From NCBI GenBank assembly GCA_034521025.1, contig JAXHMZ010000001.1:15921-79920 (forward strand): DNA of 64,000 nucleotides, given 5' to 3'. Shown in pieces: positions 2,223-56,857 of the stretch (the first letter of the stretch is position 1; every line of letters begins with the position of its first letter). Source of the stretch: Candidatus Campbellbacteria bacterium. Lineage in GTDB: Bacteria > Patescibacteriota > Minisyncoccia > Phycocordibacterales > JAXHMZ01. The notes below the pieces were generated by a model. It saw nothing but the letters and a program-made list of their open reading frames with translations. It did not search any database and had not been told where the DNA came from. A program made the position numbers and the translations under genes.

Positions 2223-3833
2223 TCAGTTTTGAGAAGGGCGATGAAACGCATTGAATGTAACTTGACACTCATCTCGGCCATCTGACACGGTCACGGAGAA
2301 GGTTGCATCGAGCGGCAAGCGCTCTTCATACCACCTGGTCTCCTTCTGACCTGGATTACTTGCCTCGGGGCCAGTATTCCAACCGTCCGGAAAGTCGTAG
2401 TCGACGATTCGAACCCCATCCGCATACGTGTAGACAGTCAATGACATGTCTCCCGTATAATTGCGATGGGTATTAACGGTCATCTCCTGCTGGTTGTTGT
2501 CGGTACCAGTACCGCCAGCACCACAGGTCCGTTGCCGAAGAGGACTGTCTGCGCGAACATCGTCGGGGAAGTCGTATGAGTCCACACGACCTTCTCGTAC
2601 CATTTCGCGCAATTCGTCGATTTGATCCTGCTGATCATCAAGACGACGCGTGTTGTCGGCAATGTCACGTTCGTTATTGCCGATCCGACGCTCGTGGTCG
2701 TCAAGTTGATCTTGCTGCCCATCGTGACCTGCACGCAGATCATCAAGCATTGCGTTGAACTGATCGACGTTTGCATCGTCGCCTGCGGGACCTTGAGGTC
2801 CGCGAGGACCTTCGGGGCCACGGGGACCTTCAGGGCCGGGCGGGCCTACTTGACCAACTTCGCCAGGAAAGCCTCGAGGTCCTCGGGGACCTTGTGGGCC
2901 CTCACAGTCGTCACTCTGTTCACAGTATGCAACTACATCTTGGTAGACTTCCTGCTTGATTTCATCGACTCGATGTTCAAGCTCTGCATGGGCCATCCAC
3001 AACGAGCCAATCTCGTCTCTCCACTCATCCCAATCTTCAGGAAACTCTCGAAGAGCTTCTTCAATCTGCAGTTGGAAGTCTTGACGAAGCTCGAGATCCG
3101 CGCGAAGTGCTTCCGCGGTGGCCGCGTCAATGTCACGGCCGACACTGTCTTCCAGATCAGCAATCGCACCCTCAAGCCGTACTTCTGCATTTTCGACGGC
3201 GCGATTTGCCTGCCGTTCGATGAGATCCTTAAGCATATCAGGATCTCCTGCAAATGATTCGATGGCAAGCGGACATCCGGGTCTCGTATGGGTGCCACCA
3301 AGGTGTACAATCTCAAGCATGATCCCGAGCAACCGAGCGGCAACATTTTCTACTTCACCGCGCGTCGCATACTCGCCGGTCTCAAAGCTAAGCTCATTGT
3401 CGTTTTCTTGGTCAACACGTCCCGTCGTCACCCCGCATGCGTGATTAAGCGCCACCGAAGGACGTTGTTCATAGGGAACTTCTTCCCAATCAACATAGTC
3501 CCAATCAGCGGGATGATCCGGAACTTCGACCACCTGACCGAATTCGAGCGTATCGGTGTCGCTGGTACCGTATTGAACAGTTGCGATGTTATGCCACTGA
3601 TCTAGCCACTGTTCCCACGACTCATCATCGCGGACGTTACTTGTGTCCCACATGAACTCATAGACGAGCTCACGCAGGTCAGCGTCAGTATCGAAAGACT
3701 GTTCGCTGTCCACGTGCTCCTGGCTCTGCGCGCTGTGTCCGTTGGCAAAAGCCGGCATATAGCCGATAATCGCCAGAACGACAAACACGAGAGTCAGACG
3801 AATTGTCCAACGTACCTTAGTGTCGTAAGTCAT
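2223..3833 (-). CDS. Membrane-anchored collagen-like repeat protein (Gly-X-Y triple-helix segment plus coiled-coil and a C-terminal domain)
   Basis: [42 protein letters not shown]. Start chosen at the ATG at 3833, which follows AGGAGG (tcccacaaggaggaaaaATG), rather than the longer upstream ORF. One TM ([22 protein letters not shown]). Confidence 0.6.
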
Positions 3834-4007
3834 TTTTCCTCCTTGTGGGATTGAATGGAACTTATCTGGCTTCGTCGGACGAGATTTCATTTTTCTCTCC
3901 CCTCTCTTCCCTTTCAAAGATCTGGCGATACTATATCACGTAATAGAAAAATGTCAACCTTTGTAAAGAGCTGACATTTAACTTTTTGTAATACAACTTT
4001 TCTTTTA

Positions 4008-5582
4008 TTAAGCAAGTGACGGTTGGACTACTTCTTTTACATTTACACTTGAAACATAGACCTCTTTTTCCGACTCCTCAACGGTTCGCTCGGTTTTATA
4101 CCATAACTGCGGTGTGTCCGGAGAACGATAATATTTGAAAGGCGCATAGAACCTAGGAATAGCCTGAACCACAAAGTGTACCGGAGTATATAGATACAGT
4201 ATTACTGACATTTTCAGGAGATACCCACGGCTCATCTTCTTGTCGTTATATGGTTCTATGTACTCCCTGAACATACGATACGTATAACCGTAAAAATCAA
4301 ATATAGTAATCGAGGCAAAAAGTAAATACAACATTACAAATTGAAAGCCTATGCTAAGTGCTCCATACGCTCCAACGACCATAAGAAACCAGCCTATTAC
4401 AGGCATTCCCAAGTGCCAAATTGAGCTATATGCGTTTGAGTATATTTTTAGAGTTAGATGGATCTTTCGGTACCACGGCAATTCTGATTCAACAACGTAA
4501 GGTATCAACTGAAAGTGTCCGCGTGCCCATCTTTCACGCTGTTTAAAATAAGTAGCATAGTTAGACGGCGACTGTTCGATCTCCGGACATGAGTACCATT
4601 CAGCCGTATGGCCAGTGAGAATATATGTCCGCAGACCAAGCTCGGCGTCTTCTACGAGTGAGCCGGCATCCCAACCACCAACGTGAAATAGAAGGTCTTT
4701 TTCAAAAAAGTAATTAGTACCAGCTAGGAAAAGAAGCTTCTTGTTCTTTCTCATGAGACGATGTGTCATAAAGCTCAAGTGGTGTACGACACCTTCGATA
4801 AAAGCTCCAATTCCGACTATGTTGAGATTCTTCATATTGGAAACTCCCAACACTATTCCTTGCAAGATCTTACTATTCTTCATCATTCGCAGAAAAGCGA
4901 TCTCCTTAAGAGAATCAACGTCTAGTCTTCCGTCCGCATCCAAAATTCCGATCATCTCTATATCTTCGTCATCTCCGGTGTAGCGAATATACTCGAGACA
5001 ATAGTTTAACGCGCGACCCTTTGTAGAGTGAGCATAAGTTTTTGTGAAATCTCCAAAGGTGCCAGAATACCACTCCGGAACCTCAACGCAGTTTACAAAC
5101 CCCGCCGGATAATTTTTCTGCAAGTCAAGTATAGTTTCTTTAGCGACTTCTTTTGTTGTGCGATCAACGTCATCGTACTTTTCACGTTCATCAACAATGA
5201 CGTAGATCTTATATGCGTCTTTTGGGTAATCCAATTCAGTAAGCCGTCTAATAGTGTTTTCTATAACACGGCCTTCATTACGAGCGGGAACGAAAACTGC
5301 AATTTTAGGGATATCACGACCTTTCATTGCAGAAACAGATATAATGTCTCGCATTGAGTAGACCTGCTTTTTCAACTTGGATTTATAATCATTCATAAAA
5401 TATACCCTGCGAAGGTATAGAAAACTACCAACAAAAAACACACCAATAGTTAGGTAGCTAAGTATCGTTATTATCTCTGAAGAAGAAAGTAGTATAAAAG
5501 TGAATAGCAAAATATCTACAGCAAGTATGATCTGTATCAAAAAAAGTATTCTATATAGATTTTTGTCCCAAAATTTTTTCAT
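4008..5582 (-). CDS. Processive family-2 glycosyltransferase (cellulose/chitin/PNAG-synthase-like), polytopic membrane protein
   Basis: GT2 motifs: VFVPARNEG...VIVDE, DADG, and QRERWARG (the QxxRW motif). Multiple TM helices at both ends. Confidence 0.7.
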   Translation of the reverse strand: MKKFWDKNLYRILFLIQIILAVDILLFTFILLSSSEIITILSYLTIGVFFVGSFLYLRRVYFMNDYKSKLKKQVYSMRDIISVSAMKGRDIPKIAVFVPARNEGRVIENTIRRLTELDYPKDAYKIYVIVDEREKYDDVDRTTKEVAKETILDLQKNYPAGFVNCVEVPEWYSGTFGDFTKTYAHSTKGRALNYCLEYIRYTGDDEDIEMIGILDADGRLDVDSLKEIAFLRMMKNSKILQGIVLGVSNMKNLNIVGIGAFIEGVVHHLSFMTHRLMRKNKKLLFLAGTNYFFEKDLLFHVGGWDAGSLVEDAELGLRTYILTGHTAEWYSCPEIEQSPSNYATYFKQRERWARGHFQLIPYVVESELPWYRKIHLTLKIYSNAYSSIWHLGMPVIGWFLMVVGAYGALSIGFQFVMLYLLFASITIFDFYGYTYRMFREYIEPYNDKKMSRGYLLKMSVILYLYTPVHFVVQAIPRFYAPFKYYRSPDTPQLWYKTERTVEESEKEVYVSSVNVKEVVQPSLA

Positions 5583-5679: not shown

Positions 5680-7515
5680 TTAGCGAGGTTCTACGTCAAT
5701 CACACAACGTGTTTCTTCTCCGTCGTCGACTCTAAGGTCAACAATGGCATCGGTGGTTTTTGTGCAATTATCGCCGGTAACTGAATCGACAACAAAGTCT
5801 TGGTTGTCGTCGAGCACCGCCCGATAATTGTTTTCTTCCACAAAAACCTTTTCACCGTCTTCGATGTCGCGAGAGATCAATTCTCCGCTTGATCGTTCGT
5901 AGACAGTAAAGGAAACGGCACGATCAATCTCAAAAACGTAATTACCTAAGCTGGAGCCACTCTCTCCCCCCACCAAGTCAAACCTGATGGTCTCAACATC
6001 CCTGTCGTCATCGCGTTCAACTTCCAGACGCACAACAACTTCACCGTCATCGTAGTCTGAGAACGAGATGTACTTGGAATGAGACTCGCGGGTGGATGAG
6101 TAGATCTCGAGATCGTCAACACGGATGGTCAGTTCGGCGTCATCCGCCGAAGAGACAGCTCCCCAATTGACCGAGAAGCCCTTGCCGTCGTCGACATCGA
6201 CATCGTCGTTGTCACGAACGTGACTTCCATCAGAGTCGGTCACGTTCAAGTAATCGATGAGGTTGGGATCAGAATCGTGATCCTCAAACTCAAAGTACAA
6301 GACGCAGTCAACGGTCTCTCCTTCATCCACATTAACGCGGATACGGAAGTCATTGACCTTGGTGCAGTCTTGCCTGACCCTGTCGAGGTCGTAGCCAAGG
6401 TTGGAAGGAGCGTTAATGTAATAACGACCTTCATTTACCCTAGCTCGATCACCGTCACGGTAGGTATCAACGTACGCGCCATCTGAGGCTTCTAGCTCTA
6501 GCGGAAAATCTTCCGGTTCGAGGTCGCCTCCGGTCACGCGAACGTCAAAATCGATCCGACCGGATCCATTTGAAGGATCACTTCCCCCCACCAAGTCAAA
6601 CCTGATGGTCTCAACATCCCTGTCGTCATCGCGTTCAACTTCCAGACGCACAACAACTTCACCGTCATCGTAGTCTGAGAACGAGATGTACTTGGAATGA
6701 GACTCGCGGGTGGACGAGTAGATCCTGTGACCGTCAACACGGATGGTCAGTTCGGCGTCATCCGCCGAAGAGACAGCTCCCCAATTGACCGAGAAGCCCT
6801 TGCCGTCGTCGACATCGACATCGTCGTTGTCACGAACGTGACTTCCATCAGAGTCGGTCACGTTCAAGTAATCGATGAGGTTGGGGTCATTGTTCCCGGT
6901 ATCATTGTCCTCATCATCGTTATGGTCGTCGTTGTCGTCTCCGCCGTGGTCACTGTTTCCATCGTCGCCGTCGTCATCGCCACTGTCATCGTTACCGCCG
7001 TCGGTATCCTTATCGCTGTCGTTATCGCCATTATCGTCGTCTTGACTTCCAACGTTAACAACGATCTCAATCGGCGAGCCGGATCTGTTGTTGCCTGACT
7101 TGTCGCTCAGGTAGAGCACAAAATGGTACTCTCCCGACCTTTGCGGCGTCCAATTGAACGTTTCTACGGACTCTTGGTCTCCGAAGTTGTGCGTATGCAC
7201 AACCGGGAGATCGCTCACATCCGTATCGGTCGTATTCCACTCACCAAGCTCAACCCGATAAGTACCGCGAACGTATCCATAGACAATGGTAAGTTCTTCA
7301 CCGATGTCCACGTCAGCCCTAGAGCGAGCATCAGCCCAGCTCCAGGTACGGTCTTGGTTGTCCTGATAAGTAGAATTATCAACTGCGACTAGGAAGGCTT
7401 GGGGGGTTACAGCGTTTTCACCGCTGTTGCCGTCTTTTGGTTGCTGATTCAGTTGAGTACAAGCCCCAAGAAACAGCAATACAAACGGCACCAATAGCAA
7501 ACCGATCTTTTTCAT
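5680..7515 (-). CDS. Highly acidic secreted lipoprotein with an internal tandem duplication and a poly-D/N/G low-complexity tract
   Basis: Lipobox LLFLGAC. DDDNGDNDSDKDTDGGNDDSGDDDGDDGNSDHGGDDNDDHNDDEDNDTGNND tract. Two near-identical segments of about 110 aa (DPNLIDYLNVTDSDGSHVRDNDDVDVDDGKGFSVNWGAVSSADDAELTIRVD...RFDLVGG). Confidence 0.5.
   Translation of the reverse strand: MKKIGLLLVPFVLLFLGACTQLNQQPKDGNSGENAVTPQAFLVAVDNSTYQDNQDRTWSWADARSRADVDIGEELTIVYGYVRGTYRVELGEWNTTDTDVSDLPVVHTHNFGDQESVETFNWTPQRSGEYHFVLYLSDKSGNNRSGSPIEIVVNVGSQDDDNGDNDSDKDTDGGNDDSGDDDGDDGNSDHGGDDNDDHNDDEDNDTGNNDPNLIDYLNVTDSDGSHVRDNDDVDVDDGKGFSVNWGAVSSADDAELTIRVDGHRIYSSTRESHSKYISFSDYDDGEVVVRLEVERDDDRDVETIRFDLVGGSDPSNGSGRIDFDVRVTGGDLEPEDFPLELEASDGAYVDTYRDGDRARVNEGRYYINAPSNLGYDLDRVRQDCTKVNDFRIRVNVDEGETVDCVLYFEFEDHDSDPNLIDYLNVTDSDGSHVRDNDDVDVDDGKGFSVNWGAVSSADDAELTIRVDDLEIYSSTRESHSKYISFSDYDDGEVVVRLEVERDDDRDVETIRFDLVGGESGSSLGNYVFEIDRAVSFTVYERSSGELISRDIEDGEKVFVEENNYRAVLDDNQDFVVDSVTGDNCTKTTDAIVDLRVDDGEETRCVIDVEPR
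5966..6888. repeat. Intragenic direct repeat: two copies of about 300 bp, >95% identical, offset exactly 600 bp (about 5966-6268 and 6585-6888)
   Basis: gagactcgcgggtgga[tc]gagtagatc... occurs at 6101 and 6701, and the long flanking sequence is identical. Confidence 0.8.
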
Positions 7516-10997: not shown

Positions 10998-11400
10998 TAC
11001 GAACAGAGTGAGTTGAGGCGGAGAGCGGGCAAACTGCTTTGCCCGTGTGAGAGAAGCGAAAGACGGAGTATATTGCGAGCGAAGCGGAGCAATTCGAGTC
11101 GGGGTCGCGAGGCTGCCGAAGGCAGAACTTGTGACCGATTCTCCCCTCCGGCACTACGAACAGAGTGAGTTGAGGCGGAGAGCGGGCAAACTGCTTTGCC
11201 CGTGTGAGAGAAGCGAAAGACGGAGTATATTGCGAGCGAAGCGGAGCAATTCGAGTCGGGGTCGCGAGGCTGCCGAAGGCAGAACTTGTGACCGATTCTC
11301 CCCTCCGGCACCAGAGCAAAGTGAGTTGAGGCGGAGAGCGGGCAAACTGCTTTGCCCGTGTGAGAGAAGCGAAAGACGGTGAGTTGAACCGGAATTGGGC
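10998..11400 (+). repeat. tRNA-3'-end-associated modular repeat array, about 2.7 units, period 150 bp; each unit ends in ...GACCGATTCTCCCCTCCGGCAC (tRNA-Leu 3' mimic)
   Basis: Unit cgattctcccctccggcactACGAACAGAGTGAGttgaggcggagagcgggcaaactgctttgcccgtgtgagagaagcgaaagacgg... is repeated at 10977, 11127 and 11277. Confidence 0.85.
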
Positions 11401-12435: not shown

Positions 12436-14328
12436 TTAGTCACACAGTGTCCAGCCGTGTAAGTAGTCGAGTTTCCTATTGCCGTATCGCACCTCACCAT
12501 CAAAGTGATGGATAATGGTGTGTCCGACAAACAGGTCTGCCTGCCAACCGTGGTTATTGCCCTGTTGTTCAGACACATCACACGGTGGGTACCCGATGAT
12601 CGTCATCTCAGCCGGACCATTTTCGTCCGCTGGAGCAATCTCTCCGGTCCAGGAGGTTGAAGGCTCCTGATGATCGAGAGCACCAGACTGATCGTGCTTG
12701 TAGTAGATCGCCCAACCGAAGTTGTAGCAATCTTCTTCTGATGTGTTGGTGACAGTGAACTCAAGACTGCCATCGGGAAGCTCGGTGATAGTACCGGTGA
12801 GACCGGTAGCATCATCAGCACTCGTGGGATCAACGCATACTAGCGTCTCACCGTCTTTGCCATCCTGGCCATCTTCTCCGTCTTCGCCATCCTGACCGTC
12901 TTCACCGTCGGCTCCGTCGCAAACGTACCAAGTACCTGTTACTTCGGAGTTGTCGAGGATGCCGTTGCGGTTGTTGTCAAGACCAACTTCAACCCTAACA
13001 CCACCGTTTTCACAGTTCTCTCCCGAAGAAACGCTTGTAGTGTCGACGAGAGTAGTGAATCCATCTTCGCCGTCCTCGCCATCTTCTCCGTCTTCCGGGT
13101 AACCAATGAAAACTGTTTCGGTGACTTCAGACTCTTCGAGCGTATCGTTGCGATTGGAGTCGAGGCCAAAGTAGAGAGTTACACCCTCTTCTCCGAACTC
13201 AACGTCAACAAGTACGTTGTAACCGTCTTCGCCATCTTCACCGTCTTCGCCGTCCTGACCGTCTTCGCCATCGCTGGGACGGCAGAAGCGCACACTTTGC
13301 TCGACTTCGCTTTCTTCAAGCTCGCCGTTGCGGTTGGTGTCGAGACCGGTCTCGAAGAGTACGCCACCGTTGCGACAGATGTCGCCAGGATGGATCTCTA
13401 CGACGTCGACTAGACTATTGTATCCGTCTTCGCCGTCCTGACCGTCCTCACCATCTTCGCCATCTTCACCGTCTTCGCCGTCCCGACCGTCTTCACCGTC
13501 GACTCCGTCGCAAACGTAAGTAACATCAGTTACTTCGCTTTCGTCCAGAACCGTATCACGGTCAGTATCCAGGCCAACGCTTACTCGCGTACCTCCATTC
13601 GGACATTCTTGTGATTCTTCGATGGGCGTGGTGTCAATTAAAGCTGTATGCCCATCTTCACCGTCTTCGCCATCGGCACCATCTTCACCGTCTTCACCGT
13701 CTTCGGGGAACGGAATAAAGATGGTTTCTGTTACCTCCGAATCATCGAGCTCGCCGTTGCGGTTAGTGTCGAGACCAAGCTCTACTGTAACGCCATCTGA
13801 TTCAAAAATGACGTTAAACAGAACGCTGAGTCCGTCTTCGCCGTCCTCACCGTCGGCACCATCTCGACCGTCTCTGCCATCTTCACCGTCCTCGCCGTCG
13901 ACACCATCTCTGCCGTCTTCGCCATCCTCACCGTCTTCGCCATCCTCACCGTCGCGAGGGATAACCAGAACGTCTACGACACAGTGCGCTTGACTGTTAA
14001 GGTAGTTATACGTTTCGTATGTAAACGTATACGTACCATCGGGCAGACAATCGCCAGTCCAGCTGGAAACGCCGACAGCTCTTGCCTGCTCTGCTACTGT
14101 CACACGCGTCCGTGTGGTTCCGGGTGTGAGCTCGTAGGTAAGCTGTGAGCCATGGTCTTCGACCGGCTCAATTACGTTTCCGGATTCATCCAGAAGCGCA
14201 AGCTCGATCCCAGTGGCGCCGTCCGGCGCAGAATACTCTACTTCAAGAGTATTAACAGGCATCGGACGACTACAAGCCGCCAGCAGTAACGCTAGAAAGA
14301 CCGCTGAAAGTATGTAAAGCTTTTTCAC
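12436..14328 (-). CDS. Acidic surface lipoprotein with (Gly-Glu/Arg-Asp)n collagen-like triplet runs alternating with EF-hand-type Ca-binding loops
   Basis: Start set to GTG at 14328 after AGGGGAGG (MKKLYILSAVFLALLLAACS lipobox). Triplet run GEDGEDGEDGEDGRDGVDGEDGEDGRDGRDGADGEDGEDG. Five or more loops of the form DTNRNGELDDSE (D-x-N-x-N-G-x-L-D-x-x-E). Confidence 0.55.
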   Translation of the reverse strand: MKKLYILSAVFLALLLAACSRPMPVNTLEVEYSAPDGATGIELALLDESGNVIEPVEDHGSQLTYELTPGTTRTRVTVAEQARAVGVSSWTGDCLPDGTYTFTYETYNYLNSQAHCVVDVLVIPRDGEDGEDGEDGEDGRDGVDGEDGEDGRDGRDGADGEDGEDGLSVLFNVIFESDGVTVELGLDTNRNGELDDSEVTETIFIPFPEDGEDGEDGADGEDGEDGHTALIDTTPIEESQECPNGGTRVSVGLDTDRDTVLDESEVTDVTYVCDGVDGEDGRDGEDGEDGEDGEDGQDGEDGYNSLVDVVEIHPGDICRNGGVLFETGLDTNRNGELEESEVEQSVRFCRPSDGEDGQDGEDGEDGEDGYNVLVDVEFGEEGVTLYFGLDSNRNDTLEESEVTETVFIGYPEDGEDGEDGEDGFTTLVDTTSVSSGENCENGGVRVEVGLDNNRNGILDNSEVTGTWYVCDGADGEDGQDGEDGEDGQDGKDGETLVCVDPTSADDATGLTGTITELPDGSLEFTVTNTSEEDCYNFGWAIYYKHDQSGALDHQEPSTSWTGEIAPADENGPAEMTIIGYPPCDVSEQQGNNHGWQADLFVGHTIIHHFDGEVRYGNRKLDYLHGWTLCD

Positions 14329-14341
14329 TGGCCTCCCCTTT

Positions 14342-15529
14342 CTAGAAGTGGACATTTACACCAACGCCCAATTCGAGATCCGTCTCCCTGGGATCGGTGA
14401 TCGTATCGAATTGATTACTCAAACCGATCTCAGTAAAGGGACGGAAAACTTCGGTCGCTTCAAACTCCAAGCCGGCAAACATCACTCCCGCAAAACCGTT
14501 GCGAGGCTCGTCAAACGAGCCTTCCTGCGCACCGAACTGGTAGAACAATCCGCCACCTGCGTAGGGGTTGGCACTACCTGCCACATAGGGCCAGAACAGC
14601 ACATCAACTCCGACGCCAAACATCATGGCTTCTACTCCGCCGGCTCTGTTCAGAGACAAGTGACCGCGCACGCCAAGCCCTTCTTCGCTCGACGAAAGCA
14701 AGCCAGTATCTCCAACGTGAAGGTTTAGCGCAAGTGGAGAAATTCCGCCAACGGAAGCACCAACGTATGTGGTAGACGGACGATCAGGGGTGGTATACAC
14801 CACCTCCGTTACGCCATCTTCACCCGCTGGTCCACGTGGGCCTTCTGGTCCTTGTTCTCCAGTTTCGCCTTGCGGACCGGCAGGTCCTTGTGAACCTGCT
14901 TCACCGCGAGGACCGGGCTCGCCTTGCGAACCTTCCAGACCTTGTTCTCCACGGGGACCAATGTCACCTTGCTCGCCCGGCAGACCCATAGGGCCAGCCA
15001 GACCTTGTTCTCCGTCTTCGCCTTGCGGGCCCTGTGGTCCGACTTCGCCGCGAGGACCTCGGATATTACCAAGCTCTCGCATCTCACCGTCCGTGTACGT
15101 AATCGAGAGGTTGCCCTCTTCATCGAGGTAAACACTCTCTATTCCGCGTCCGGGCTCCCCTTCGGGGCCTTGCGGACCGGCGGGGCCTTGTGGGCCTGCT
15201 TCACCGCTTTCTCCCTCAGGACCCCGAGGACCTTGCGGGCCTTCGGTTTGTGGCAAGCATTCTGATTCCAGAATGCGAGCAATGACGACAAACGCCTCGT
15301 TACGCGTCAGGCTATCCCGACCGCGAATTGTAAACGTACCTTCGTCGCCGACAATGACGTTGCACTCAACCGCTCGGTTAAGCGCTTCGCGCGCCCAATC
15401 GACCACCGATTCCATATCGGTGAATACTTCGGGTGCTGGATGTGCCGCCCCGATAGGCGGCTCCGAATCTTGTGCCTGCGCAATAGGGATAACGAAGAGT
15501 AGGAAAAGCGCAAAACAAAACTTTTTCAC
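14342..15529 (-). CDS. SLH-domain protein with collagen-like Gly-X-Y repeats and a C-terminal domain ending in F
   Basis: GTG start after AGGAGAAG. Signal peptide. SLH-like segment [85 protein letters not shown] and further GLxGxxGxxG runs. C-terminus ...GVGVNVHF. Confidence 0.55.
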
Positions 15530-15656: not shown

Positions 15657-15849
15657 ATAATTGTTCGCTTTCTCGCTCCCTTCACTCACGCTGTTCGTTG
15701 CGGGTCCGAGCCGGGACTCGAATCTTACAGATTCGGTACAGATCTCGTATCGTGCTCGCAAAGCTGCGCGCGATTAACTCGATCTTTTCTCGTCCTGGCG
15801 AAAGCGAAATTGTTCGCTTTCTCGCTCCCTTCACTCACGCTGTTCGTTG
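15657..15849 (-). repeat. tRNA-3'-end-associated repeat: one 151-nt unit plus a partial second unit; the unit ends in GATTCGAGTCCCGGCTCGGACCCGCA (tRNA-Trp 3' mimic)
   Basis: aattgttcgctttctcgctcccttcactcacgctgttcgttgcgggtcc occurs at 15657 and 15808. The minus-strand left end is ACGAACAGCGTGAG. Confidence 0.8.
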
Positions 15850-16969: not shown

Positions 16970-17120
16970 ATTCGAATTCTGACACGAGCAAAGCAGTTTG
17001 TTTTGGGATTCTCTCCTTACAGGAGCTGTACACCTTTCGTATCGTACTCACTTTGTTCCGTGCGATATACTCAAGGTTTTCGAATCCTGCCCGAAAGCTT
17101 CGCTTTCTCGGCCACAAAAT
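16970..17120 (-). repeat. tRNA-associated repeat module in permuted/inverted arrangement downstream of tRNA-Tyr
   Basis: Minus-strand reading contains cggGAACAAAGTGAG, CTGTACAGCTCCTGTAAGGAG, CAAACTGCTTTGC and GAGTATATCGCAC. Also an inverted copy of the tRNA-Tyr T-arm region (cgggcaggattcgaa). Confidence 0.6.
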
Positions 17121-20266: not shown

Positions 20267-21505
20267 TTAAAGACCTAAGAAAGTATTTCTTTTAAAACTT
20301 CTACGGTTTTTTCCACTTCTTTCTTTCTCTGTATTGAATCCAAATGAAAACCTCACGGAGCTCTCCGCACATTCTTCCTTTATAACGCGCAATACTTCTG
20401 ACTCATTACCCTTTCTGCTTCGACAGGCACTTCCTCTGGAAACAAAAATTCCCTTAGCATCGAGAGATAAGACAAGCCATTCTGCATCAGCTCCTTTGAA
20501 GCACACATTTACAATGTGCGGAGTCATATTGTCTGTATTTCCGTTTATGCTCGCTTGGCTGATCTCTTTTGTTAATTCTTCGACAAAAAAATCGTGAGAT
20601 CTCACCCAGGCGCTCGCTCTCTTCTTCTACTTTTTCTTGCGCGATTGAAAGCGCTATCCGCAAGCTCTCGATCGCCAGTATATTCTCAGTGCCGGGACGG
20701 AGTCCTTCTTCTTGGCCTCCTCCATATAGCAACGGATGTATTTCAACGCCCTCTTTAACAAAAAGTAAGCCTGAACCCTTTAATCCTCCTACTTTTGATC
20801 CGTCCAAAACCAATAGATCAACACCCAATTTCTGCACATTAAGATCAAAACAGGTTGCCGCCTGCGTTACGTCCAAAAGAAAATATGGATACTTTTCTCC
20901 TGTTTCGTGTCGTCTGAAATGTCGCAACGATCTAACAAGTTCTTCTACCGGTAAAATATTTCCGATCTCGCTGTTGACGTATGAAAACACAGCTAGACAA
21001 GTCTCCTTTCTTAGAGAGTCTTTAAATTCTTTATTATCAATTACTCCTTTTTCATTTGGGGTGAGATAAGTAACCTCAACACCCTCTATCTCTAACGCCC
21101 TCAGAGTTTCTAGAATTGCAGGATGTTCAATACTGCTGGTTACCACATGAGGAGTTTCGAATAATTCTTTTGCTTTTTTTACGGTACCTTGAATTGCAAT
21201 ATTCAATGACTCTGTAGAACCTGAAGTAAAAGTTATTTCTTCCGGAAGTACGCCAAAACATGAGCGGTCTCTTTTCTCGCTTTGGCTATTCTTGATCTGG
21301 CTTCAACTCCCTTTTTGTGTATCGAAGATGGGTTCGCAAAATGTTCCAATGAATCATTAATTTGCGTCAATACTTCACTTCGTACCGGCGCGGATGCTGC
21401 ATAATCCAGATATATTTGATCGTTTTTAAAATCTTTCATTATTTCTATATTACCAGAACAGCTTAACAAAAACTTGTCAGAGAGCAATTTTGTCGGTATA
21501 ATCAA
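20267..21505 (-). pseudogene. Cysteine desulfurase (NifS/IscS/SufS-like, aminotransferase class V) split into three reading frames
   Basis: ORF 21233-21505 is the N-terminus (IYLDYAASAP). ORF 20487-21206 is the PLP domain (DGSKVGGLKGSG). ORF 20267-20605 is the C-terminus (SRGSACRS). Frames 1/2/1. Both junctions sit at homopolymers (T8-9 near 21172-21180, A7 at 20585-20591). Confidence 0.7.
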
Positions 21506-25674: not shown

Positions 25675-26100
25675 CAACGAACAAAGTGAGTTGGTAGAAA
25701 GCTCATTTCTGAGCTTTCGTGCGGGAATCGAAAAGGTTCTCCCATATCCCTCACCAGTTTTCTGGTGGGGGATGGGAAACCTGCACAGATCCTGTAAGGT
25801 TGAGCTGCGAGCGAGCGCAGCAACGAAAAACCTTTTGAGATATTTTGTGAGATACCGAAACAAAATATCCAAAAGGTGTACTGATCTCGTGAATCGATTC
25901 GCCCCGGGCACTAATAAAACCAATGGAAGTAGCAAGCAAACAGTTTGCTTCGGTGAACGAAATCGAAAAGGTTGAGTAGTCGGACGGAACGAAGTGATAC
26001 GACACGATACCGATTGTAGTTCAGATTCCCGCCCCGAGCACAAGAGAGTGAAGCGAGCGTAATGCTCGGGAGCATGCAAACTGCTTTGTGTGCGATGAAG
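25675..26100 (+). repeat. tRNA-3'-end-associated repeat array (units about 240, 127 and one partial), with mimics GATTCGCCCCGGGCAC and CAGATTCCCGCCCCGAGCAC
   Basis: Begins caACGAACAAAGTGAG. Contains the CGAAAAGG and CAAACTGCTTTG motifs. Confidence 0.75.
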
Positions 26101-26237
26101 AATCAAAAAATTGATTCTTGCAAAAAGTGTTTTTTCAACGTAGAATGTTTTTCGTCTATTTTTGGAAAAGCAATCTAGCAACCTGCGATAGGAAAATTTG
26201 ATTCAAGATCCTGAGGTTATACAATAGCTAGAGTGTA

Positions 26238-26438
26238 GATATTAGACCCGCCCATAGCTCAGTTGGATAAAACAGAAACTGCTTTCTGTTTTATCCGGTT
26301 CCGCGTAAGCGGAAACTTCCGTTGTTGAGCGTAGCGAAACAGGAAGTAGGAGGAAGAGTTTACTCTAACAACTGAGCATTTCGGGGACAGTACATAAGCA
26401 CTGGTACCATCGCGTGGTATAGTGGTACAAATAATTAA
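26238..26438 (+). repeat. Duplicated 5' fragment of tRNA-Lys (ccgcccatagctcagttgg) followed by an insert of about 180 nt, directly upstream of the intact tRNA-Lys
   Basis: The first 19 nt of tRNA-Lys are repeated at 26238. The insert begins with the hairpin ggataaaacagaaactgctttctgttttatcc. Confidence 0.7.
26416..26423 (+). promoter_or_regulatory. Extended -10-like box TGGTATAGT upstream of tRNA-Lys (the same motif lies upstream of tRNA-Arg)
   Basis: gtggtatagtggta is shared by the Lys and Arg tRNA upstream regions. TGcTATACT is found upstream of tRNA-Val at 48503-48511. Confidence 0.35.
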
Positions 26439-26511
26439 CCGCCCATAGCTCAGTTGGTAGAGCAGTTGCCTTTTAAGCAAACGGTCCTAGGTTCGAATCC
26501 TAGTGGGCGGA
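26439..26511 (+). tRNA. tRNA-Lys(TTT)
   Basis: Acceptor CCGCCCA/TGGGCGG, loop CTTTTAA, T-loop TTCGAAT. Confidence 0.8.
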
Positions 26512-26960
26512 CACGAAAGAAGTGAGGGGACGACCAAGCAAACAAATAGTTTTGTTTGCGTCTAGGATGAGAAGAGGTCGAATATATCGCGCGCAGTACA
26601 GCGAGCACGATTTGAGACCTGTACCGAATCCGTAAGATTCGAATCCTGAGTCGGGCGGACACGAAAGAAGTGAGGGGACGACCAAGCAAACAAATAGTTT
26701 TGTTTGCGTCTAGGATGAGAAAAGGCTCAAATGGTCCGGGGGACTGTTTGAGAAGGTTGCCAGATAGTTTGAGAGCTTGCGAACCAAACTATCGACAACC
26801 TGTACAGCTCCTGTAAGGAGGAATTAATCGGGCGCAGCTTGGCGAGCACGATTTGAGACCTGTACCGAATCTGTAAGATTCGAATCCTGAGTCGGGCGGA
26901 CACGAACAAAGTGAGAGGACGACCAAGCAAGCAAATAGTTTTGTTTGTTTTAGTGTGGAT
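26512..26960 (+). repeat. tRNA-3'-end-associated repeat array: unit 1 about 147 nt; unit 2 is the same plus a nested ~105-nt module; then a partial unit 3. Units end in GATTCGAATCCTGAGTCGGGCGGA
   Basis: cACGAAAGAAGTGAGGGGACGACCAAGCAAACAAATAGTTTTGTTTGC is repeated at 26512, 26659 and 26899. The nested module at 26727-26832 is about 95% identical to 48697-48802. Confidence 0.85.
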
Positions 26961-28487: not shown

Positions 28488-28975
28488 CACGAACAAAGTG
28501 AGTGTGACGGGGAAGCAGGCAAACTGCTTTGCCTGCGTGAGAGGACTCGAGAATGAGCATATCGCAGCGGAGCTTGTGACACATACGAGATCTGTACAGG
28601 TTCTGTAAGAACCGAGTCCTCTCCCCGGCACACGAACAAAGTGAGTGTGACGGGGAAGCAGGTAAACTGCTTTACCTGTGCGAGGACGAGAAAAGGCTGA
28701 GTTTATCGCAACGAGTCCGCAGGACGAAGTGTCAGTCTGTACCGAACCGAAGTCGACTCCCCGGCACAGGTTGAGCGCAGCGAAAGCTGGGCCGGGAGAA
28801 AGACAATTTCTTGTCTTGCGTGAGAGGGCTCGAAAAGATCGAGTATATCGAGCGCAACTCTGTGAGCACGATACGAGATCTGTACAGGTTCAGTAAGAAC
28901 CGAGTCCTCTCCCCGGCACAAGTGAGTCCGCGAACGCAGTGACGGGAGCAGGTAAACTGTTTTGCCTGCGTGATT
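28488..28975 (+). repeat. tRNA-3'-end-associated repeat array (3 units plus a partial); units end in CCGAGTCCTCTCCCCGGCAC or GTCGACTCCCCGGCAC
   Basis: cACGAACAAAGTGAGTGTGACGGGGAAGCAGG[CT]AAACTGCTTT[GA]CCTG occurs at 28488 and 28632. Mimics at about 28612-28631, 28753-28768 and 28899-28918. Confidence 0.85.
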
Positions 28976-29079
28976 TGTTGTATCTCTTTTTATATTTGAC
29001 AAAAAGTGTTTTTATAGTATAATCTCAAGCAGAACTAACTTACGTTTCTTGACATAACTCAACACGAAAGGAGTTAAAA

Positions 29080-30789: not shown

Positions 30790-31224
30790 TTATATTAGCA
30801 TTTTTGCTAGCTTAGGATCACAACCACCCCCGCCCGGATCTACTCCTCCTGGCGAAGTTGGTAAAGTTGGTGTTGGCGGCGGATCAGTAAATCCGGTTCC
30901 GCCTAAAATTGATTTTTGCAAAATGCTTACAATCCCCCATATGGATACCATCATAAAGAGAGCTATAACGCCCCAAAACATAATTCTTTTTCCTCTTTCG
31001 CTGGCATCTTCATCTCCGGCTTTAAAAATATAGATAACTAAACCGTAAAGAAAACCAACTAGACCCAATCCAACCATAAGCGGCACGAGGGCCTCTATAA
31101 TTTTTTGCATCGCTTCTATGAGGGTAAGTATTGTAGCGTTCTGAGCCTTGACCAATATCGGGAAGAAAAATAAAAAAAGAGTTGTAGATATAAAAATGTT
31201 TTTTTGTTCTATATTTTTTTTCAT
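30790..31224 (-). CDS. VirB2/TrbC-like small membrane protein (signal peptide, two TM helices, Pro/Gly-rich C-terminus); paralog 6 of 6
   Basis: ALVPLMVGLGLVGFLYGLVIYIFKAGDEDASERGKRIMFWGVIALFMMVSIWGIV, then PPPTPTLPTSPGGVDPGGGGCDP. Confidence 0.45.
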   Translation of the reverse strand: MKKNIEQKNIFISTTLFLFFFPILVKAQNATILTLIEAMQKIIEALVPLMVGLGLVGFLYGLVIYIFKAGDEDASERGKRIMFWGVIALFMMVSIWGIVSILQKSILGGTGFTDPPPTPTLPTSPGGVDPGGGGCDPKLAKMLI

Positions 31225-31263
31225 AACTTATATTTTGAAAATACTAAATATAAAAATCATATT

Positions 31264-31521
31264 TTATATTGTACTTATACCAAACGTATTAAGGACGAGG
31301 TTAATTAAACTAACCGCCGCAACCATTATAAAGATACCAAGAATACCATACAACATATGCTTTTTTCCTTTCTCGCGAGCTTCATCATTTGAGCTATTGG
31401 CGACAAACTGAAGAAGACCCCAAGCAAACACTAGAGCCGCAAGCGCGAACAAAAGCACTATCAAGGGGTTGATAATAACTGCATTTAATCTAGCCACAAA
31501 TTCAGCCATGTTGACTATCAT
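31264..31521 (-). CDS. VirB2/TrbC-like small two-TM membrane protein; paralog 5
   Basis: Same TM1-short charged loop (NDEAREKGKKHM)-TM2 architecture. Confidence 0.4.
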   Translation of the reverse strand: MIVNMAEFVARLNAVIINPLIVLLFALAALVFAWGLLQFVANSSNDEAREKGKKHMLYGILGIFIMVAAVSLINLVLNTFGISTI

Positions 31522-31608
31522 AATACCACAGAAACATAAAAACCGCCCTGTGAAGAACGGTTTTTATAACGATCTTGTAGTACACATCTTCTAAAGATGC
31601 ATATCTAC

Positions 31609-31962
31609 CTAATTACTCGGAGGCTGTGGAGGAGTAACAGAACCTCCGGTATTAATACCAAATGCACCACTTAGCACTTCGATAATACCCCAAACAGCTA
31701 CAGCAGCAAACAAACCAACGATTCCGGCTATCATGATTCTACGACCATCCGCTTGGCTTTCTTCATTCCCTGCTGCAAAGATGTATTTTACAAGACCATA
31801 AAGAAACGCAACCAAAGCAACTCCGACTAGTAGAGGTACTAGGGCGTTGACTATATCCTGAATACTACCAACAAGAGTGTCAAACCAAACGAGTTCTTGT
31901 GCGTGTGCCACAGAAGGCGCAACAAGAAGTACAGGCGCTATTAGTTTTAAAAACTTTTTCAT
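31609..31962 (-). CDS. VirB2/TrbC-like small membrane protein; paralog 4
   Basis: Signal peptide MKKFLKLIAPVLLVAPSVAHA, two TMs around AAGNEESQADGRR, C-terminus GGSVTPPQPPSN. Confidence 0.45.
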   Translation of the reverse strand: MKKFLKLIAPVLLVAPSVAHAQELVWFDTLVGSIQDIVNALVPLLVGVALVAFLYGLVKYIFAAGNEESQADGRRIMIAGIVGLFAAVAVWGIIEVLSGAFGINTGGSVTPPQPPSN

Positions 31963-32087
31963 TTTAAGATGTTTTCTATCTAAACTATTAATGTTAATTG
32001 TACAAAAACGACCTCTGTTCAGTACTGTAGAAATACTACCAAATAAAGCTCTGTTTTTCTACGCAACCTGTGGATTATTCAAACAAG

Positions 32088-32393
32088 CTAAACACTCAAA
32101 AAGGTGTTGGTAAGTATAGTCACAATGCCCCAGAAAGAGACAACCATAAATAGAGCTATGATGCCCCAGAACATTATACGCTTGCCTTCTTCCAAATTGT
32201 CGCTACTGCCTAGGGAAAATACAAATCTGGCTAGCCCATAAAGGAACATGAGAAGAATAAGGGCTATGACCAGAGTAAACAAAGGATCAATAATACTAAT
32301 AAGCAAATCGACAAGCTGAGCAAATGTTGTTGGCTGGGCAAAGACAAGGTTTGGGAATAGCAGTATTGTCGTGATGAATAGAGATCTCTTCAT
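32088..32393 (-). CDS. VirB2/TrbC-like small membrane protein; paralog 3
   Basis: Signal peptide plus two TMs around SLGSSDNLEEGKRIMFWGIIALF. Confidence 0.45.
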   Translation of the reverse strand: MKRSLFITTILLFPNLVFAQPTTFAQLVDLLISIIDPLFTLVIALILLMFLYGLARFVFSLGSSDNLEEGKRIMFWGIIALFMVVSFWGIVTILTNTFLSV

Positions 32394-32402
32394 ATAAATG
32401 TC

Positions 32403-32717
32403 TTACTTTAATGATTCAATGGTACCTTGAATAAGCTGTGATATGGCTTCGGCTCCCAAAAGTATAAGCGCACCCAAAAGGGCATAAGTGATAGCTCTTT
32501 TGGCTTTATCAAGTTTCTCTGTATTGCCTTGGGCGGTGACAAAAAGGAAACCGGCGTATATCACTGAAAGCACCACGATCGGAGTAGCAAGCAGAATGAG
32601 CGCTTCAATAATTATATTTAAAAGCGAAAGCAGGGTCTCATCGCCAAGAGGATTACCTATATTGATATCAGATTGGGCTAATAAGTATTCTTTATAATTT
32701 TGCCACCATTCCTTCAT
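32403..32717 (-). CDS. VirB2/TrbC-like small two-TM membrane protein; paralog 2 (no obvious cleavable signal)
   Basis: Two TMs around AQGNTEKLDKAKRAITYALLGA. Confidence 0.4.
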   Translation of the reverse strand: MKEWWQNYKEYLLAQSDINIGNPLGDETLLSLLNIIIEALILLATPIVVLSVIYAGFLFVTAQGNTEKLDKAKRAITYALLGALILLGAEAISQLIQGTIESLK

Positions 32718-32765
32718 ATGTTTTGTATTTGACGCTACTCTATTTGTGCTTAAATGTAAATTAAA

Positions 32766-33218
32766 TTACCCACCATAATCCTCTAAGAACTGATTGAAAT
32801 TGGTTTCCACGCCAAGTGCAGAGACAATTACCTGTACCAAAAGGTAGGCTCCAAAGACCAGCACTAAGCCGATGGCGACGTTGGTAAAGATCTTTTTGGC
32901 AGCTTCTGTTTGAGAAGTATCCCCCGCGGCTGTAGCATACCTGAATCCCGCCCAAGCAAAGAAAACCGTCGCTAGAGATAAAGAAAAGACCAAGAGAAAT
33001 CCCATTATGTTGGCAATTAATTGCAAGAAATCATCAAAACCGCATTCCGTGGCGGCATCTTCTCCCGTACAGGCTTCGGGTACAAGCGTAAAATCTTTTT
33101 TCTCTACCTCTGTACTGCCCACCGGTTCAATTGTCTCCTGCGCGAAAAGACTATCTGTAGGCAAAAACATTCCCAAAACTAAAGATAGAATTAAAAAGGA
33201 TTTTAGAAAATTAGCCAT
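32766..33218 (-). CDS. VirB2/TrbC-like small membrane protein with a Cys-containing N-terminal extension; paralog 1
   Basis: Signal peptide, CTGEDAATEC segment, two TMs around AAGDTSQTEAAKKIF. Confidence 0.4.
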   Translation of the reverse strand: MANFLKSFLILSLVLGMFLPTDSLFAQETIEPVGSTEVEKKDFTLVPEACTGEDAATECGFDDFLQLIANIMGFLLVFSLSLATVFFAWAGFRYATAAGDTSQTEAAKKIFTNVAIGLVLVFGAYLLVQVIVSALGVETNFNQFLEDYGG

Positions 33219-47372: not shown

Positions 47373-47449
47373 TCGCCACCTCCTCCTCTATTGGTGTATT
47401 TCTACTTTGAAAGATTACTTATTCGCTAAAGTCTGTCAAATAGATATTT

Positions 47450-47624
47450 TGCTATGACCCCACGGAGAATCGAATCTTACAGATTCGGTAGAGTCTTCGT
47501 GTCGTACTCGCTACACTCCGTGCGACTAACTCAGACTTTTCGATTCACCGATCTGAGCCAAATTATTGGCTCATTTGTGGTATGAACAAAAAAGGACTGC
47601 TCAAGCAGTCTCTTTTTGTATTCA
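47450..47624 (-). repeat. tRNA-3'-end-associated repeat unit downstream of tRNA-Glu, ending in CTACCGAATCTGTAAGATTCGATTCTCCGTGGGGTCA (Glu 3' mimic)
   Basis: Minus-strand reading: hairpin gactgcttgagcagtc, CGAAAAGTCTGAGTTAGTCGCACGG, then the conserved right arm plus an exact copy of the tRNA-Glu 3' end. Confidence 0.75.
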
Positions 47625-48522: not shown

Positions 48523-48596
48523 GGGCGATTAGCTCAGTTGGCTAGAGCGCATCATTGACGTTGATGAGGCCATAGGTTCGAGTCCTATATCGCCCA
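48523..48596 (+). tRNA. tRNA-Val(GAC)
   Basis: Acceptor GGGCGAT/ATCGCCC, anticodon stem CATCA/TGATG, loop TTGACGT. -10-like TGcTATACT lies 12 nt upstream. Confidence 0.75.
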
Positions 48597-48880
48597 CCGT
48601 ACAGTTCAAGATGGCACAACGATGTGTCTTTATACAAAAGTTCCTATAGTGCAAGAGCAAGCCAACTGCTTGGCTTGCGTGTTAGGACTCGAAAAGCTCA
48701 AACAGTCCGGGGGACTGTTTGAGAAGGTTGCCAGATAGTTTGAGAGCTTGCGAATCAAACTGTCGACAACCTGTACAGCTCCTGTAAGGAGGGAGTATAT
48801 CGCGCGAAGCAGAGCGAGCACGACGCGAAGACTGTACCGAATCTGTAAGATTCGAGTCCTATATCGCCCACCTAGACAAA
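48597..48880 (+). repeat. tRNA-3'-end-associated repeat unit carrying the nested ~105-nt module; ends in CTGTACCGAATCTGTAAGATTCGAGTCCTATATCGCCCACC (Val 3' mimic)
   Basis: The module at 48697-48802 matches 26727-26832. Terminal 24 nt are identical to the tRNA-Val 3' end. Confidence 0.8.
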
Positions 48881-56370: not shown

Positions 56371-56632
56371 TGTACTTTAAAAGAATTTTCCATTAAAAAG
56401 AAAGAGGTCAAAAGTTAACTATAGGGACTTCTGTCCCCTTCGCAATTACAGAAAATTACCGTCGTCGTAAACCACATCGCTATCAATCACCTCGGCTTCT
56501 ATCGAACTCCTGGACAAACACAAGAGCGACTTGAGAGACAACAAATACACCTTTATACACATTAAGACAGCCACGTGGGCTGCCTTTAAATGTTTTTGCT
56601 TAATAAAAATTCCAAAACTGTTTGTATAAATT

Positions 56633-56785: not shown

Positions 56786-56857
56786 TGCCAGGTCGGACTC
56801 GAACCGCCGACCCTTCGCTCTTCAGACAAATGCTCTAGCCAACTGAGCTACCTGGGC
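56786..56857 (-). tRNA. tRNA-Phe(GAA)-like; possible pseudogene (3-nt insertion in the T-stem, 1-nt deficit in the acceptor 3' strand)
   Basis: Good D-arm (TAGCTCAGTTGGCTAGAGC) and anticodon arm (loop CTGAAGA). However GTCGG[CGG]TTCGAGTCCGAC, and acceptor GCCCAGG against CCTGG-C. Confidence 0.5.

Follow-up and report, generated by a model that had tools for sequence, protein, structure and literature searches.

Covarying RNA modules with tRNA-specific arms behind the tRNA genes of a Campbellbacteria chromosome segment and of other Patescibacteria

Ten of the 12 tRNA genes in a 64,000-nt stretch of a Candidatus Campbellbacteria genome (contig JAXHMZ010000001.1, positions 15,921 to 79,920; hereafter the window, with coordinates counted from its first letter) have one to three units of about 150 nt downstream on their own strand, and several of these arrays include an extra, truncated copy (700 nt 3′ of each tRNA were examined). 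The window, part of a bacterial chromosome, has a GC content of about 43%. Each unit holds a conserved, covarying RNA core between an arm antisense to the 3′ part of the neighbouring tRNA and an arm that copies it. We tentatively read the units, with a confidence somewhat short of even, as cis-acting RNA modules that would be co-transcribed on the precursor tRNA (pre-tRNA) and whose antisense arm may pair with either the real tRNA end or a decoy copy of that end. The family is apparently large and undescribed and, in our judgement, lies outside the known kinds. The sequences show its architecture, tRNA specificity, covariation, phylogenetic spread, gain and loss and a conserved leader version, whereas its function is our inference. 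A first-pass annotation had described the repeats at the tRNA-Lys locus; the repeats are real, and what this view overlooked is the tRNA specificity of the units and their presence throughout the genome.

A covariance model, R1, built from 86 units, gave 15 matches in the window at E < 0.01, all of them downstream of tRNAs and on the tRNA strand (10 of the 12 tRNAs), with none elsewhere; the linkage of the core to tRNA gene ends is exclusive. The order of parts is a short trailer, often ACGAACAAAGUGAG; a hairpin, B, often with the loop region AAACUGCUUU; the antisense arm; the core; and the sense copy. The 5′ arm is the reverse complement of the T-loop, of the 3′ strand of the T-stem and often of the 3′ acceptor strand of the neighbouring tRNA (GGGCAGGAUUCGAA against UUCGAAUCCUGCCC at tRNA-Tyr, for instance), the 3′ arm duplicates the 3′ end of the same tRNA wholly or in part, and pairing of the 5′ arm with the unit's own 3′ copy closes the junction (P1). 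Besides the prevailing type A there is a type B, whose core, GAGUCGGGGUCGCGAG...CUUGUGACC, has G.U pairs on the sense strand and differs from that of type A while following the same arm logic. ARAGORN and Rfam detected only the 12 true tRNAs in the window, with no tRNA match on any unit or on the 5′ fragment of tRNA-Lys described below.

Folding of the 86 units with RNAalifold gives a core of about 85 nt in the form of a three-way junction, with a P2-P3 rod that contains two tandem G.A-type internal loops, an invariant GUAC and a further hairpin, P4. P2 (5 bp) leads through a 2x2 G.A/G.A-type loop, two pairs and a 2-nt bulge to an invariant UCG/CGA; P3 continues with the second G.A-type loop and an apical stem whose length varies; and P4, which follows GUAC, is a hairpin of 4-5 bp with a UGUAAG loop. 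The invariant unpaired positions are GA, GAG.ACGA, GAA, GUAC and GUAAG. We take the internal loops of the core to be tandem sheared G.A, and P4 is presumably a tetraloop or T-loop-like hairpin. Double changes were found in 13 of the 19 pairs, and numbered 327 as compared with 98 in shuffles; 97.7% of the paired cells could pair, as against 78.6% in column shuffles and 25-42% when the partners were slid by 1-3 columns; and the covariation score was 0.556 versus 0.193. The compensatory changes thus exceed both shuffled and slid controls, as is generally asked of a conserved structured non-coding RNA. Since the search pattern fixed only unpaired or invariant positions, selection of the loci cannot have produced the covariation. 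The purine-rich loops, the GNRA-like GUAA loop and the preponderance of G.U over A.C in the helices indicate an RNA read from the tRNA strand.

The arms are specific to the tRNA that they adjoin. Measured by the longest substring in common with the adjoining tRNA, the antisense arm reaches a median of 12 nt and the sense arm one of 10 nt, as against 5 in controls, and the exact complement of the tRNA's 7-nt T-loop (variants scored include UUCGAAU, UUCGAUU, UUCAAGU and UUCAACU) is present in 58 of 83 units, where permutation gave a mean of 13.3 and a maximum of 23. This complement is retained in 40 of the 59 units whose own copy is without a T-loop; the own copy often starts only at UCC, after a conserved GAAAU or a small extra hairpin, and the length of duplicated tRNA varies from about 6 to more than 60 nt. 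The duplex of arm and tRNA is stronger than that of arm and own copy in 59 of 84 units and weaker in 11. Mismatches between arm and tRNA comprise 34 of G.U type and 19 of A.C type, an excess that would mildly favour pairing by sense-strand RNA. At tRNAs without an encoded CCA, the anti-acceptor segment is complementary to the genomic trailer instead of to CCA (e.g. GTGTGaCGGGGA against TCCCCGgCACAC), which points to the precursor or the DNA, rather than the mature tRNA, as the pairing partner; for the same reason a primer-binding site of a retroviral-type retroelement was ruled out.

When both an anti-acceptor segment and an acceptor copy are present, a unit is predicted to fold as a tRNA minihelix with a side hairpin (z = -5.5 at locus L016, z = -4.6 at tRNA-Leu(UAG)), and 68 of the 233 tRNAs examined have behind them an exact 3′ copy of 12-26 nt that reaches to the discriminator base. 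Closed folds of this kind, with an acceptor-like stem, a side hairpin and P1 in the manner of a T-stem, would suit independent tRNA-like small RNAs, excised by RNase P and RNase Z and acting in trans as mimics or decoys towards, for example, aminoacyl-tRNA synthetases, the CCA-adding enzyme, EF-Tu, tRNA-targeting toxins or phage factors. So would the P4 loop UGUAA, which we take to fit the T-loop pentanucleotide pattern U-N-N-R-A. However, about half of the units have no acceptor copy, and its loss can be stable, the 3′ copy in the tRNA-Tyr unit being just 6-8 nt long both in the window and in a syntenic relative (see below); the tRNA-Lys copy, CCUGAGUCGGGCGGA, deviates from the tRNA sequence, CCUAGUGGGCGGA; and the 5′ arm follows the real T-loop even where its own partner has none, which a free-standing mimic would not need. 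Such a trans-acting role therefore seems improbable to us.

Outside the window, a degenerate core pattern of 34 nt, which matches the window seven times and its shuffles never, was sought in GTDB contigs, one genome per species. It was found in at least 120 loci, a lower bound, from many metagenome-assembled genomes (MAGs), and all the matches listed are labelled Patescibacteria or unclassified; the labels among them include Paceibacteria/Parcubacteria, Nomura-, Taylor-, Zambryski-, Kaiser- and Yonathbacteria, Minisyncoccia and MAGs labelled Saccharibacteria. Among these listed matches, 89 of 125 motif occurrences lie 61-200 nt downstream of a tRNA on the same strand, and 32 anticodons are represented; most of the remaining occurrences are at locus edges, inside arrays or in a variant class with different flanks. 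Type-A cores with no tRNA nearby were seen at L067, L069, L093, L096 and L101, flanked 5′ by GGUGAGCG(U)AGCGCAAGACC and 3′ by GGGUGGGGUGCG. Type-B units also occur at L007, L008, L020, L042, L062, L082, L110 and L117. The core pattern had no match in 2.9 million viral contigs, Rfam 15 (gathering and permissive thresholds, whole window and zoomed) returned tRNAs and noise only, without a match on any unit, and a full-text search of the literature accessible without subscription found no description of such elements.

Integrative elements that reside in tRNA genes share with the units a direct repeat of the 3′ part of the tRNA that starts in a loop, an intact tRNA and tandem accretion. The T-loop, the D-loop and the anticodon loop are the classical sublocations of integrase crossover in tRNA genes, and both direct repeats of the tRNA 3′ end that begin in the T-loop and 5′ fragments with breakpoints in or close to the D-loop or the anticodon loop (see below) could accordingly be scars of integration, with attL and attR around a decayed element. 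Yet the DNA between the repeats is only 130-240 nt long, non-coding and without integrase or cargo, and a Pfam scan of 40 of the larger open reading frames (ORFs) of the window found no recombinase. This DNA consists of a covarying core with invariant loops common to at least 120 loci. Unlike integrative elements and their miniature, cis-mobilisable derivatives, the units have an RNA fold, versions mirrored at the 5′ end and an antisense arm, which belongs to no att site, and the 5′ fragment at tRNA-Lys is kept identical to its own tRNA in two diverged genomes. Integrase scars, and with them plain tRNA pseudogene debris, are largely refuted by the covariation and the conserved leader, and we assign them hardly any probability.

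The tRNA-Lys locus, which had been described as carrying a duplicated 5′ fragment of the tRNA upstream and two repeat units downstream, shows these features to an extent that far exceeds chance. tRNA-Lys(UUU) itself (26439-26512, + strand) is intact, without an encoded CCA (ARAGORN; Rfam, 71.6 bits). Both full units were found behind it, together with a third one truncated to trailer and hairpin B (26903 to ~26953, +). Unit 1, of type A (26513-26661, +; R1 match 26541-26668, 103.5 bits), is made up of the trailer (26513-26537), hairpin B (26538-26559), the anti-T segment CUAGGAU (26562-26568), the core (26576-26640; P2 GGUC/GACC, P3 rod, GUAC and P4 GAAUC-CGUAA-GAUUC) and the 3′ copy of the tRNA end (26638-26659). 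Unit 2 (26662-26902, +; R1 match 26783-26909, 71.4 bits; 3′ copy of the tRNA end at 26879-26900) is likewise of type A and contains a nested module of 106 nt (26727-26832, +). This insert is the main difference between the two units, which without it are ~87-89% identical, in agreement with the proposal that unit 2 equals unit 1 plus an insertion.

The module is shared with the tRNA-Val locus, as had also been proposed. There, tRNA-Val(GAC) (48523-48598, +) is followed by a single type-A unit (48599-48872, +; 80.3 bits) that closes with 24 nt identical to the tRNA 3′ end, and the module copy (48697-48802) aligns with that of unit 2 at 93% identity over 105 nt (BLAST E 2e-39). The predicted fold of the module (minimum free energy -38.7 kcal/mol, z = -3.7) returned the two hairpins previously claimed: a 12-bp stem, CUCAAAUGGUCC-GGG-GGACUGUUUGAG, at the start and the CUCC-UGUAA-GGAG hairpin at the end. 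Between them is a second closed hairpin domain, a P2-like GGUUG/CAACC helix around a hairpin with the loop GAGAGCUUGCGAAC, and CUGUAC. As the module was found neither in tRNA-Lys unit 1 nor in any of the 77 units from other genomes in the alignment, it is not a regular part of every unit, and the view of the elements as composite, with the module inserted, holds. Its site is identical in the Lys and Val units, between the 5′ strand of P2 and GAGUA. Across the two loci the modules are more alike (91-93%) than are the host units (~65% before the module and ~81% after it), which shows that the module moved or was converted between units after these had diverged; given the homologous flanks, gene conversion is as plausible as transposition. 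The module resembles a second half-core of the family that is without P3. Related half-cores occur in unit 1 of tRNA-Leu(UAA) in the window and, with the same GAG.C.UGCGAAC loop, at L082 461-514 in another genome; the module is thus a recurrent, portable domain of the family.

Comparison with a syntenic relative, represented by Logan contigs that carry ClpB, an aminotransferase, IF-2, RbfA, tRNA-Cys, MurE (63% identical) and tRNA-Leu(UAA), bears on what lies upstream of tRNA-Lys. A search with MurE gave relatives at up to 65% identity, the DUF6612 protein encoded downstream matched only itself when used as a query, and a further contig, P0007, was set aside as not syntenic and without a tRNA. 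All contigs of the relative that reach this point (L121, L122 and L124-L126) stop inside the presumed tRNA-Lys gene, so that the comparison at this locus covers the leader side; the breaks suggest that repeats downstream, possibly units, interrupt the relative's assemblies there.

Nucleotides 1-19 of tRNA-Lys (26439-26457; CCGCCCATAGCTCAGTTGG) recur exactly at 26248-26266 (+), where about 0.007 repeats of a 19-mer anywhere in 64 kb would be expected by calculation. The duplication had been noticed before; the distance to the tRNA copy is corrected here to 191 nt. The fragment comprises the 5′ strand of the acceptor, the 5′ strand of the D-stem and part of the D-loop, and is separated from the tRNA by an insert of 172 nt (26267-26438). 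That insert had been called unrelated, a view that the comparison does not support: it is 84% identical in the relative (BLAST match to the Logan contigs). There, the arrangement of fragment (20 nt) and insert also precedes the presumed tRNA-Lys, a gene cut at the contig end, before the anticodon. The predicted fold of fragment and insert is a closed multi-hairpin structure (z = -5.6), in which the fragment forms the 5′ strand of the closing helix, with GCUCAGUU and CCCG of the fragment pairing with the downstream antisense AACUGAGC and CGGGG. The enclosed hairpins are hp1 (26265-26296, + as are the others; loop region AAACUGCUUU), hp2 (26297-26316; GUAA loop), hp3 (26315-26347) and hp4 (26355-26366), and the antisense segment CAACUGAGC (26369-26377, +) complements GCUCAGUUG of the fragment and of the D-arm of the real tRNA.

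Between window and relative, helices of this leader change in a compensatory manner (ACAGAAA/UUUCUGU to AUAGAAA/UUUCUAU; ACUUCC/GGAAGU to AUCGCC/GGCGAU). The relative's fragment, GCCCCGTTAGCTCAGCTTGG, agrees with its own tRNA 5′ end, GCCCCGTTAGCTCAGCTGG, which differs from that of the window (in the relative GCCCCGUUAGCUCAGCUUGG in the fragment against GCCCCGUUAGCUCAGCUGG in the tRNA; in the window CCGCCCAUAGCUCAGUUGG in both), and its antisense segment has CCAGCU, following its own D-loop variant. A promoter-like site (TTGCAA-17-TAGAAT, 26118-26146, +) lies 5′ of the fragment and has a counterpart, TTGCAA-17-TAAAAT, in the relative, that is, TTGCAA-17-TA[AG]AAT is conserved in both; a second promoter-like site is at 26198-26225 (+), and a promoter scan of the window gave no passing site directly 5′ of tRNA-Lys. 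A scan of metagenomes with a 20-mer from within the leader gave no match. The first-pass annotation had taken the fragment for a tRNA copy disrupted in the D-loop. A decaying tRNA pseudogene is ruled out, since fragment and tRNA are identical within each of the two genomes, which differ in their acceptor stems, and the conservation, the compensatory changes, the promoter-like site, the antisense end and the tracking of the tRNA in the relative instead indicate a maintained, structured pre-tRNA leader. In its order of sense copy, hairpins and antisense segment, the leader is a mirror image of the 3′ units.

Exact copies of the tRNA 5′ end of at least 12 nt lie upstream of 11 of the 233 tRNAs examined, with breakpoints mostly in or near the D-loop and the anticodon loop. 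At least two of the 11 are not of the leader type (a paralogous tRNA-Arg pair and a simple tandem duplication). The duplication at L106 (tRNA-Tyr) encloses a gene for a GIY-YIG nuclease: at ~350-660 on the tRNA strand, an ORF of 80 aa (Pfam E 6e-17) lies between a 5′ pseudo-half, itself interrupted by a 28-nt hairpin, and the intact tRNA-Tyr. This looks like the insertion of a free-standing homing endonuclease with a duplicated tRNA 5′ half, and some 5′ duplications in these genomes thus appear to be true mobile-gene insertions. At L103 (1908-2123), a copy of tRNA-Pro(UGG) nt 1-36, which reaches the anticodon loop, lies upstream and leads directly into GUGAGCGUAGCGCAAGACC, a type-A core and then the intact tRNA; an additional copy, of 8 nt, lies further upstream.

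The relative also informs on gain and loss of the units. Its tRNA-Tyr keeps a type-A unit at the orthologous site, in which P2, P3 and P4 differ from those of the window by compensatory changes and the anti-T segment follows its own T-arm (UUCAAAUCCUAC, arm GUAGGACUUGAA), whereas no unit was found at its tRNA-Trp, tRNA-Leu(CAA) and tRNA-Leu(UAA), which have a short trailer motif or a plain terminator instead. The motif (A)ACGAAC(A)AAGUGAG stands directly 3′ of tRNAs, including the unit-less tRNA-Trp and tRNA-Leu(CAA) of the relative (L124 1052-1082 and 75-85), and for that reason appears to be a native trailer signal of the lineage and not a part of the unit.

Presence or absence at orthologous tRNAs would also be expected of non-autonomous mobile elements that home to tRNA ends, their core being recognised by an enzyme encoded elsewhere (a reverse transcriptase, an HUH/Y1 transposase or a recombinase). 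The antisense arm would then be a targeting guide or a by-product of insertion, and the sense copy a target duplication arising, for example, through priming or template switching at the universal T-loop. This main rival to our reading, doubtful though quite conceivable to us, accommodates the tandem arrays with perfect repeats, the terminal copies truncated at variable points and the duplications that extend past the tRNA end into the trailer; the several core types that obey one arm logic; the similarity of trailer and hairpin-B sequences among different tRNAs of this genome; the 5′-end duplications at 11 of 233 tRNAs, with the GIY-YIG gene at L106; and the nested insertions, both of the 106-nt module and at L108. 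At the latter (3510-4366), an insertion of ~730 nt within a type-A unit is flanked by a ~65-nt duplication of the 3′ part of the unit, so that long target duplications evidently accompany other insertions in these genomes. Against it, 40 of the larger ORFs of the window, whose Pfam matches are housekeeping or cell-surface genes, include none for a transposase, an integrase, a reverse transcriptase or a homing endonuclease, and the viral contigs yielded no copy. An element that moved between tRNA species would bear the wrong arm, yet the arms fit their neighbours down to the T-loop variant. The mean core identity is 0.73 among the units of the window and 0.69-0.74 between genomes; identity within the window being no higher than between genomes, the family is old and has undergone no recent burst in this genome. 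Compensatory upkeep of the tRNA-Tyr unit and of the Lys leader is unexpected for dead insertions, and priming by mature tRNA is excluded by the complementarity of the anti-acceptor segment to the trailer and not CCA. A miniature inverted-repeat transposable element or other derivative of an insertion sequence was rejected, as each locus has inverted arms of its own, fitted to the tRNA beside it, and the duplication has no fixed length.

Among known systems, the closest functional precedent is that of the theta ribozymes, HDV-like (hepatitis delta virus-like) RNAs that adjoin phage tRNAs and for which cis action on the tRNA 3′ trailer has been proposed (Nat Commun 2024, PMC10879173). Both are small structured RNAs directly behind tRNA genes. 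However, the units are three-way junctions with G.A loops and theta ribozymes nested double pseudoknots; theta ribozymes are without tRNA-specific arms; and the units are chromosomal, in bacteria of the Candidate Phyla Radiation (CPR), and were not found in viral contigs. No Rfam 15 model of a self-cleaving ribozyme (hammerhead, HDV/theta, twister, twister-sister, pistol, hatchet, hairpin, VS) matched the units at E values up to 5-10; by inspection, strand order or bulge geometry appears unsuitable for a hammerhead, a hairpin or a K-turn, and the junction sequences misfit the hammerhead core. tRNA-like structures, such as mascRNA from MALAT1, YrlA, the t-elements of plant mitochondria and viral tRNA-like structures, which are cut from longer transcripts, likewise place an acceptor/T-arm minihelix 3′ of another RNA, and RNase P, RNase Z or the CCA-adding enzyme might recognise these minihelices and, by likeness, the units. 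Those structures mimic a generic tRNA shape, whereas the units reuse the sequence of their own neighbour, with an 85-nt domain in place of the T-loop.

The logic of the units comes closest to that of attenuators and riboswitches with alternative pairing (T-box, antiterminator), in which one segment has two flanking partners and a conserved domain is adjacent; in the units, by contrast, a tRNA end competes with its own decoy copy, and no downstream expression platform is evident. We know of no earlier description of alternative pairing between a tRNA end and its decoy. Structured RNA at the tRNA genes of reduced genomes, with breakpoints in loops, is also seen in the split or intron-bearing tRNAs of archaea, which have complementary leaders, and in the group I introns that occur in the tRNAs of Patescibacteria (bioRxiv 10.1101/2025.07.03.662931). 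The tRNAs of the window are, unlike these, uninterrupted, with external insertions, duplicated ends and no bulge-helix-bulge motif. A group I intron was rejected, the tRNAs being continuous (ARAGORN) and Intron_gpI having no match (Rfam). We also considered a split tRNA or one with an intron in the T-loop, to be assembled from the 5′ half of the tRNA and the distal 3′ copy; the distal copy is, however, often truncated or altered (Lys, Tyr, Phe).

Our preferred reading, that of cis-acting modules on the pre-tRNA, can be laid out as follows. The modules would be transcribed together with the tRNA; promoter-like sites precede the leader or the tRNAs, with none convincing upstream of units. The antisense arm would pair either with the real tRNA end or with its own decoy copy, the latter closing the junction into a tRNA-like minihelix, and folding of the core junction would in this way be coupled to the folding state of the tRNA. 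The module may then act in cis on the folding, processing, release or quality control of the precursor, with the conserved core being read by a shared factor or catalysing a step. The family would have diversified as units were duplicated in tandem, lost or recombined with one another, and as further domains, the 106-nt module among them, came to be nested within them. A more far-reaching version, which we regard as unlikely, is that the core is a new class of functional RNA, be it a ribozyme that cleaves itself or serves processing, or an aptamer that binds a shared metabolite or protein, and that it gates the maturation or survival of most tRNAs in a major bacterial radiation through the competition of arm and decoy.

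Several points weigh against the modules acting in this manner. The proposed switch is deduced from complementarity, and a tRNA, once folded, would be hard for a downstream antisense arm to invade. The complementarity of arm and tRNA could be maintained without selection, through template switching at the DNA level in quasi-palindromes. Many genomes have a terminator-like palindrome between tRNA and unit, which argues against efficient co-transcription there. Two tRNAs of the window, tRNA-Cys and tRNA-Ser, have no units, and with the three orthologous tRNAs of the relative at which units are missing this indicates that the units are dispensable. The antisense arm of the tRNA-Lys units is short (7 nt) and without a complement to the T-loop. 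Finally, the arrays in tandem, with truncated copies at their ends and modules nested in them, are reminiscent of the dynamics of selfish DNA. Action in cis and mobility are not mutually exclusive: a selfish, RNA-shaped passenger on tRNA promoters and processing enzymes would show the features of both.

The remaining units of the window are distributed as follows. On the + strand, two perfect type-B repeats of 157 nt and a truncated third follow tRNA-Leu(CAA) (10998-11400; ~21 bits), two units follow tRNA-Leu(UAA) (25676-26051; 41.8 and 37.5 bits), the first being a long composite with the module-like half-core, and three units and a truncated one follow tRNA-Leu(UAG) (28489-28986; R1 matches, with the tRNA-like closed fold described above). 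On the - strand, single type-A units belong to tRNA-Trp (15692-15848; 103.7 bits), tRNA-Tyr (16984-17111; 118 bits; the orthologue of the relative's unit), tRNA-Glu (47444-47571; 101.8 bits), tRNA-Phe (56628-56754; 96.1 bits) and tRNA-Arg(CCU) (57723-57850; 110.1 bits). tRNA-Phe (56785-56857) is aberrant, with the lowest Rfam score (39 bits), a 3′ acceptor strand apparently 1 nt short and a T-stem mismatch, and the 3′ copy of its unit, UUCGAGUCCUAGACGGGGCAC, is mismatched to it.

The genes of the window include those for ClpB, IF-2, RbfA, MurE, GyrA, MiaA, FtsA/FtsZ, a class I aminoacyl-tRNA synthetase and RelA/SpoT. Three large proteins with collagen-triple-helix repeats, one with DUF7151, are encoded at 2223-3917, 12436-14355 and 14342-15529, and the relative lacks the block 12436-15529 between MiaA and tRNA-Trp. 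A 300-nt direct repeat (5965-6264 and 6583-6882, 98% identical) lies within an ORF of 611 aa that has no Pfam match. The ORF of a class-V aminotransferase (20267-21206) has 239 aa as compared with 397 aa in the relative, and is possibly frameshifted or truncated. Small genes clustered at 30790-33218 include two for type IV secretion system pilin-like (TrbC/VirB2) proteins.

For practical purposes, the compact, covarying fold of ~85 nt with invariant loops can be assayed directly for catalysis or ligand binding, may account for recurrent assembly breaks and odd "tRNA fragments" in MAGs of the CPR, and can serve as a marker to annotate tRNA loci in these genomes. If our reading is correct, tRNA genes across much of the CPR, in organisms not yet accessible to genetics, would be accompanied by structured RNA partners that read the ends of their own tRNA, which would be either a new layer of tRNA biogenesis and control or a novel strategy by which a selfish, RNA-shaped element targets the most conserved of genes. 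Should the core itself prove to be a functional RNA of a new class, it would represent a global, RNA-encoded control or quality check of the tRNA supply in organisms with minimal genomes.

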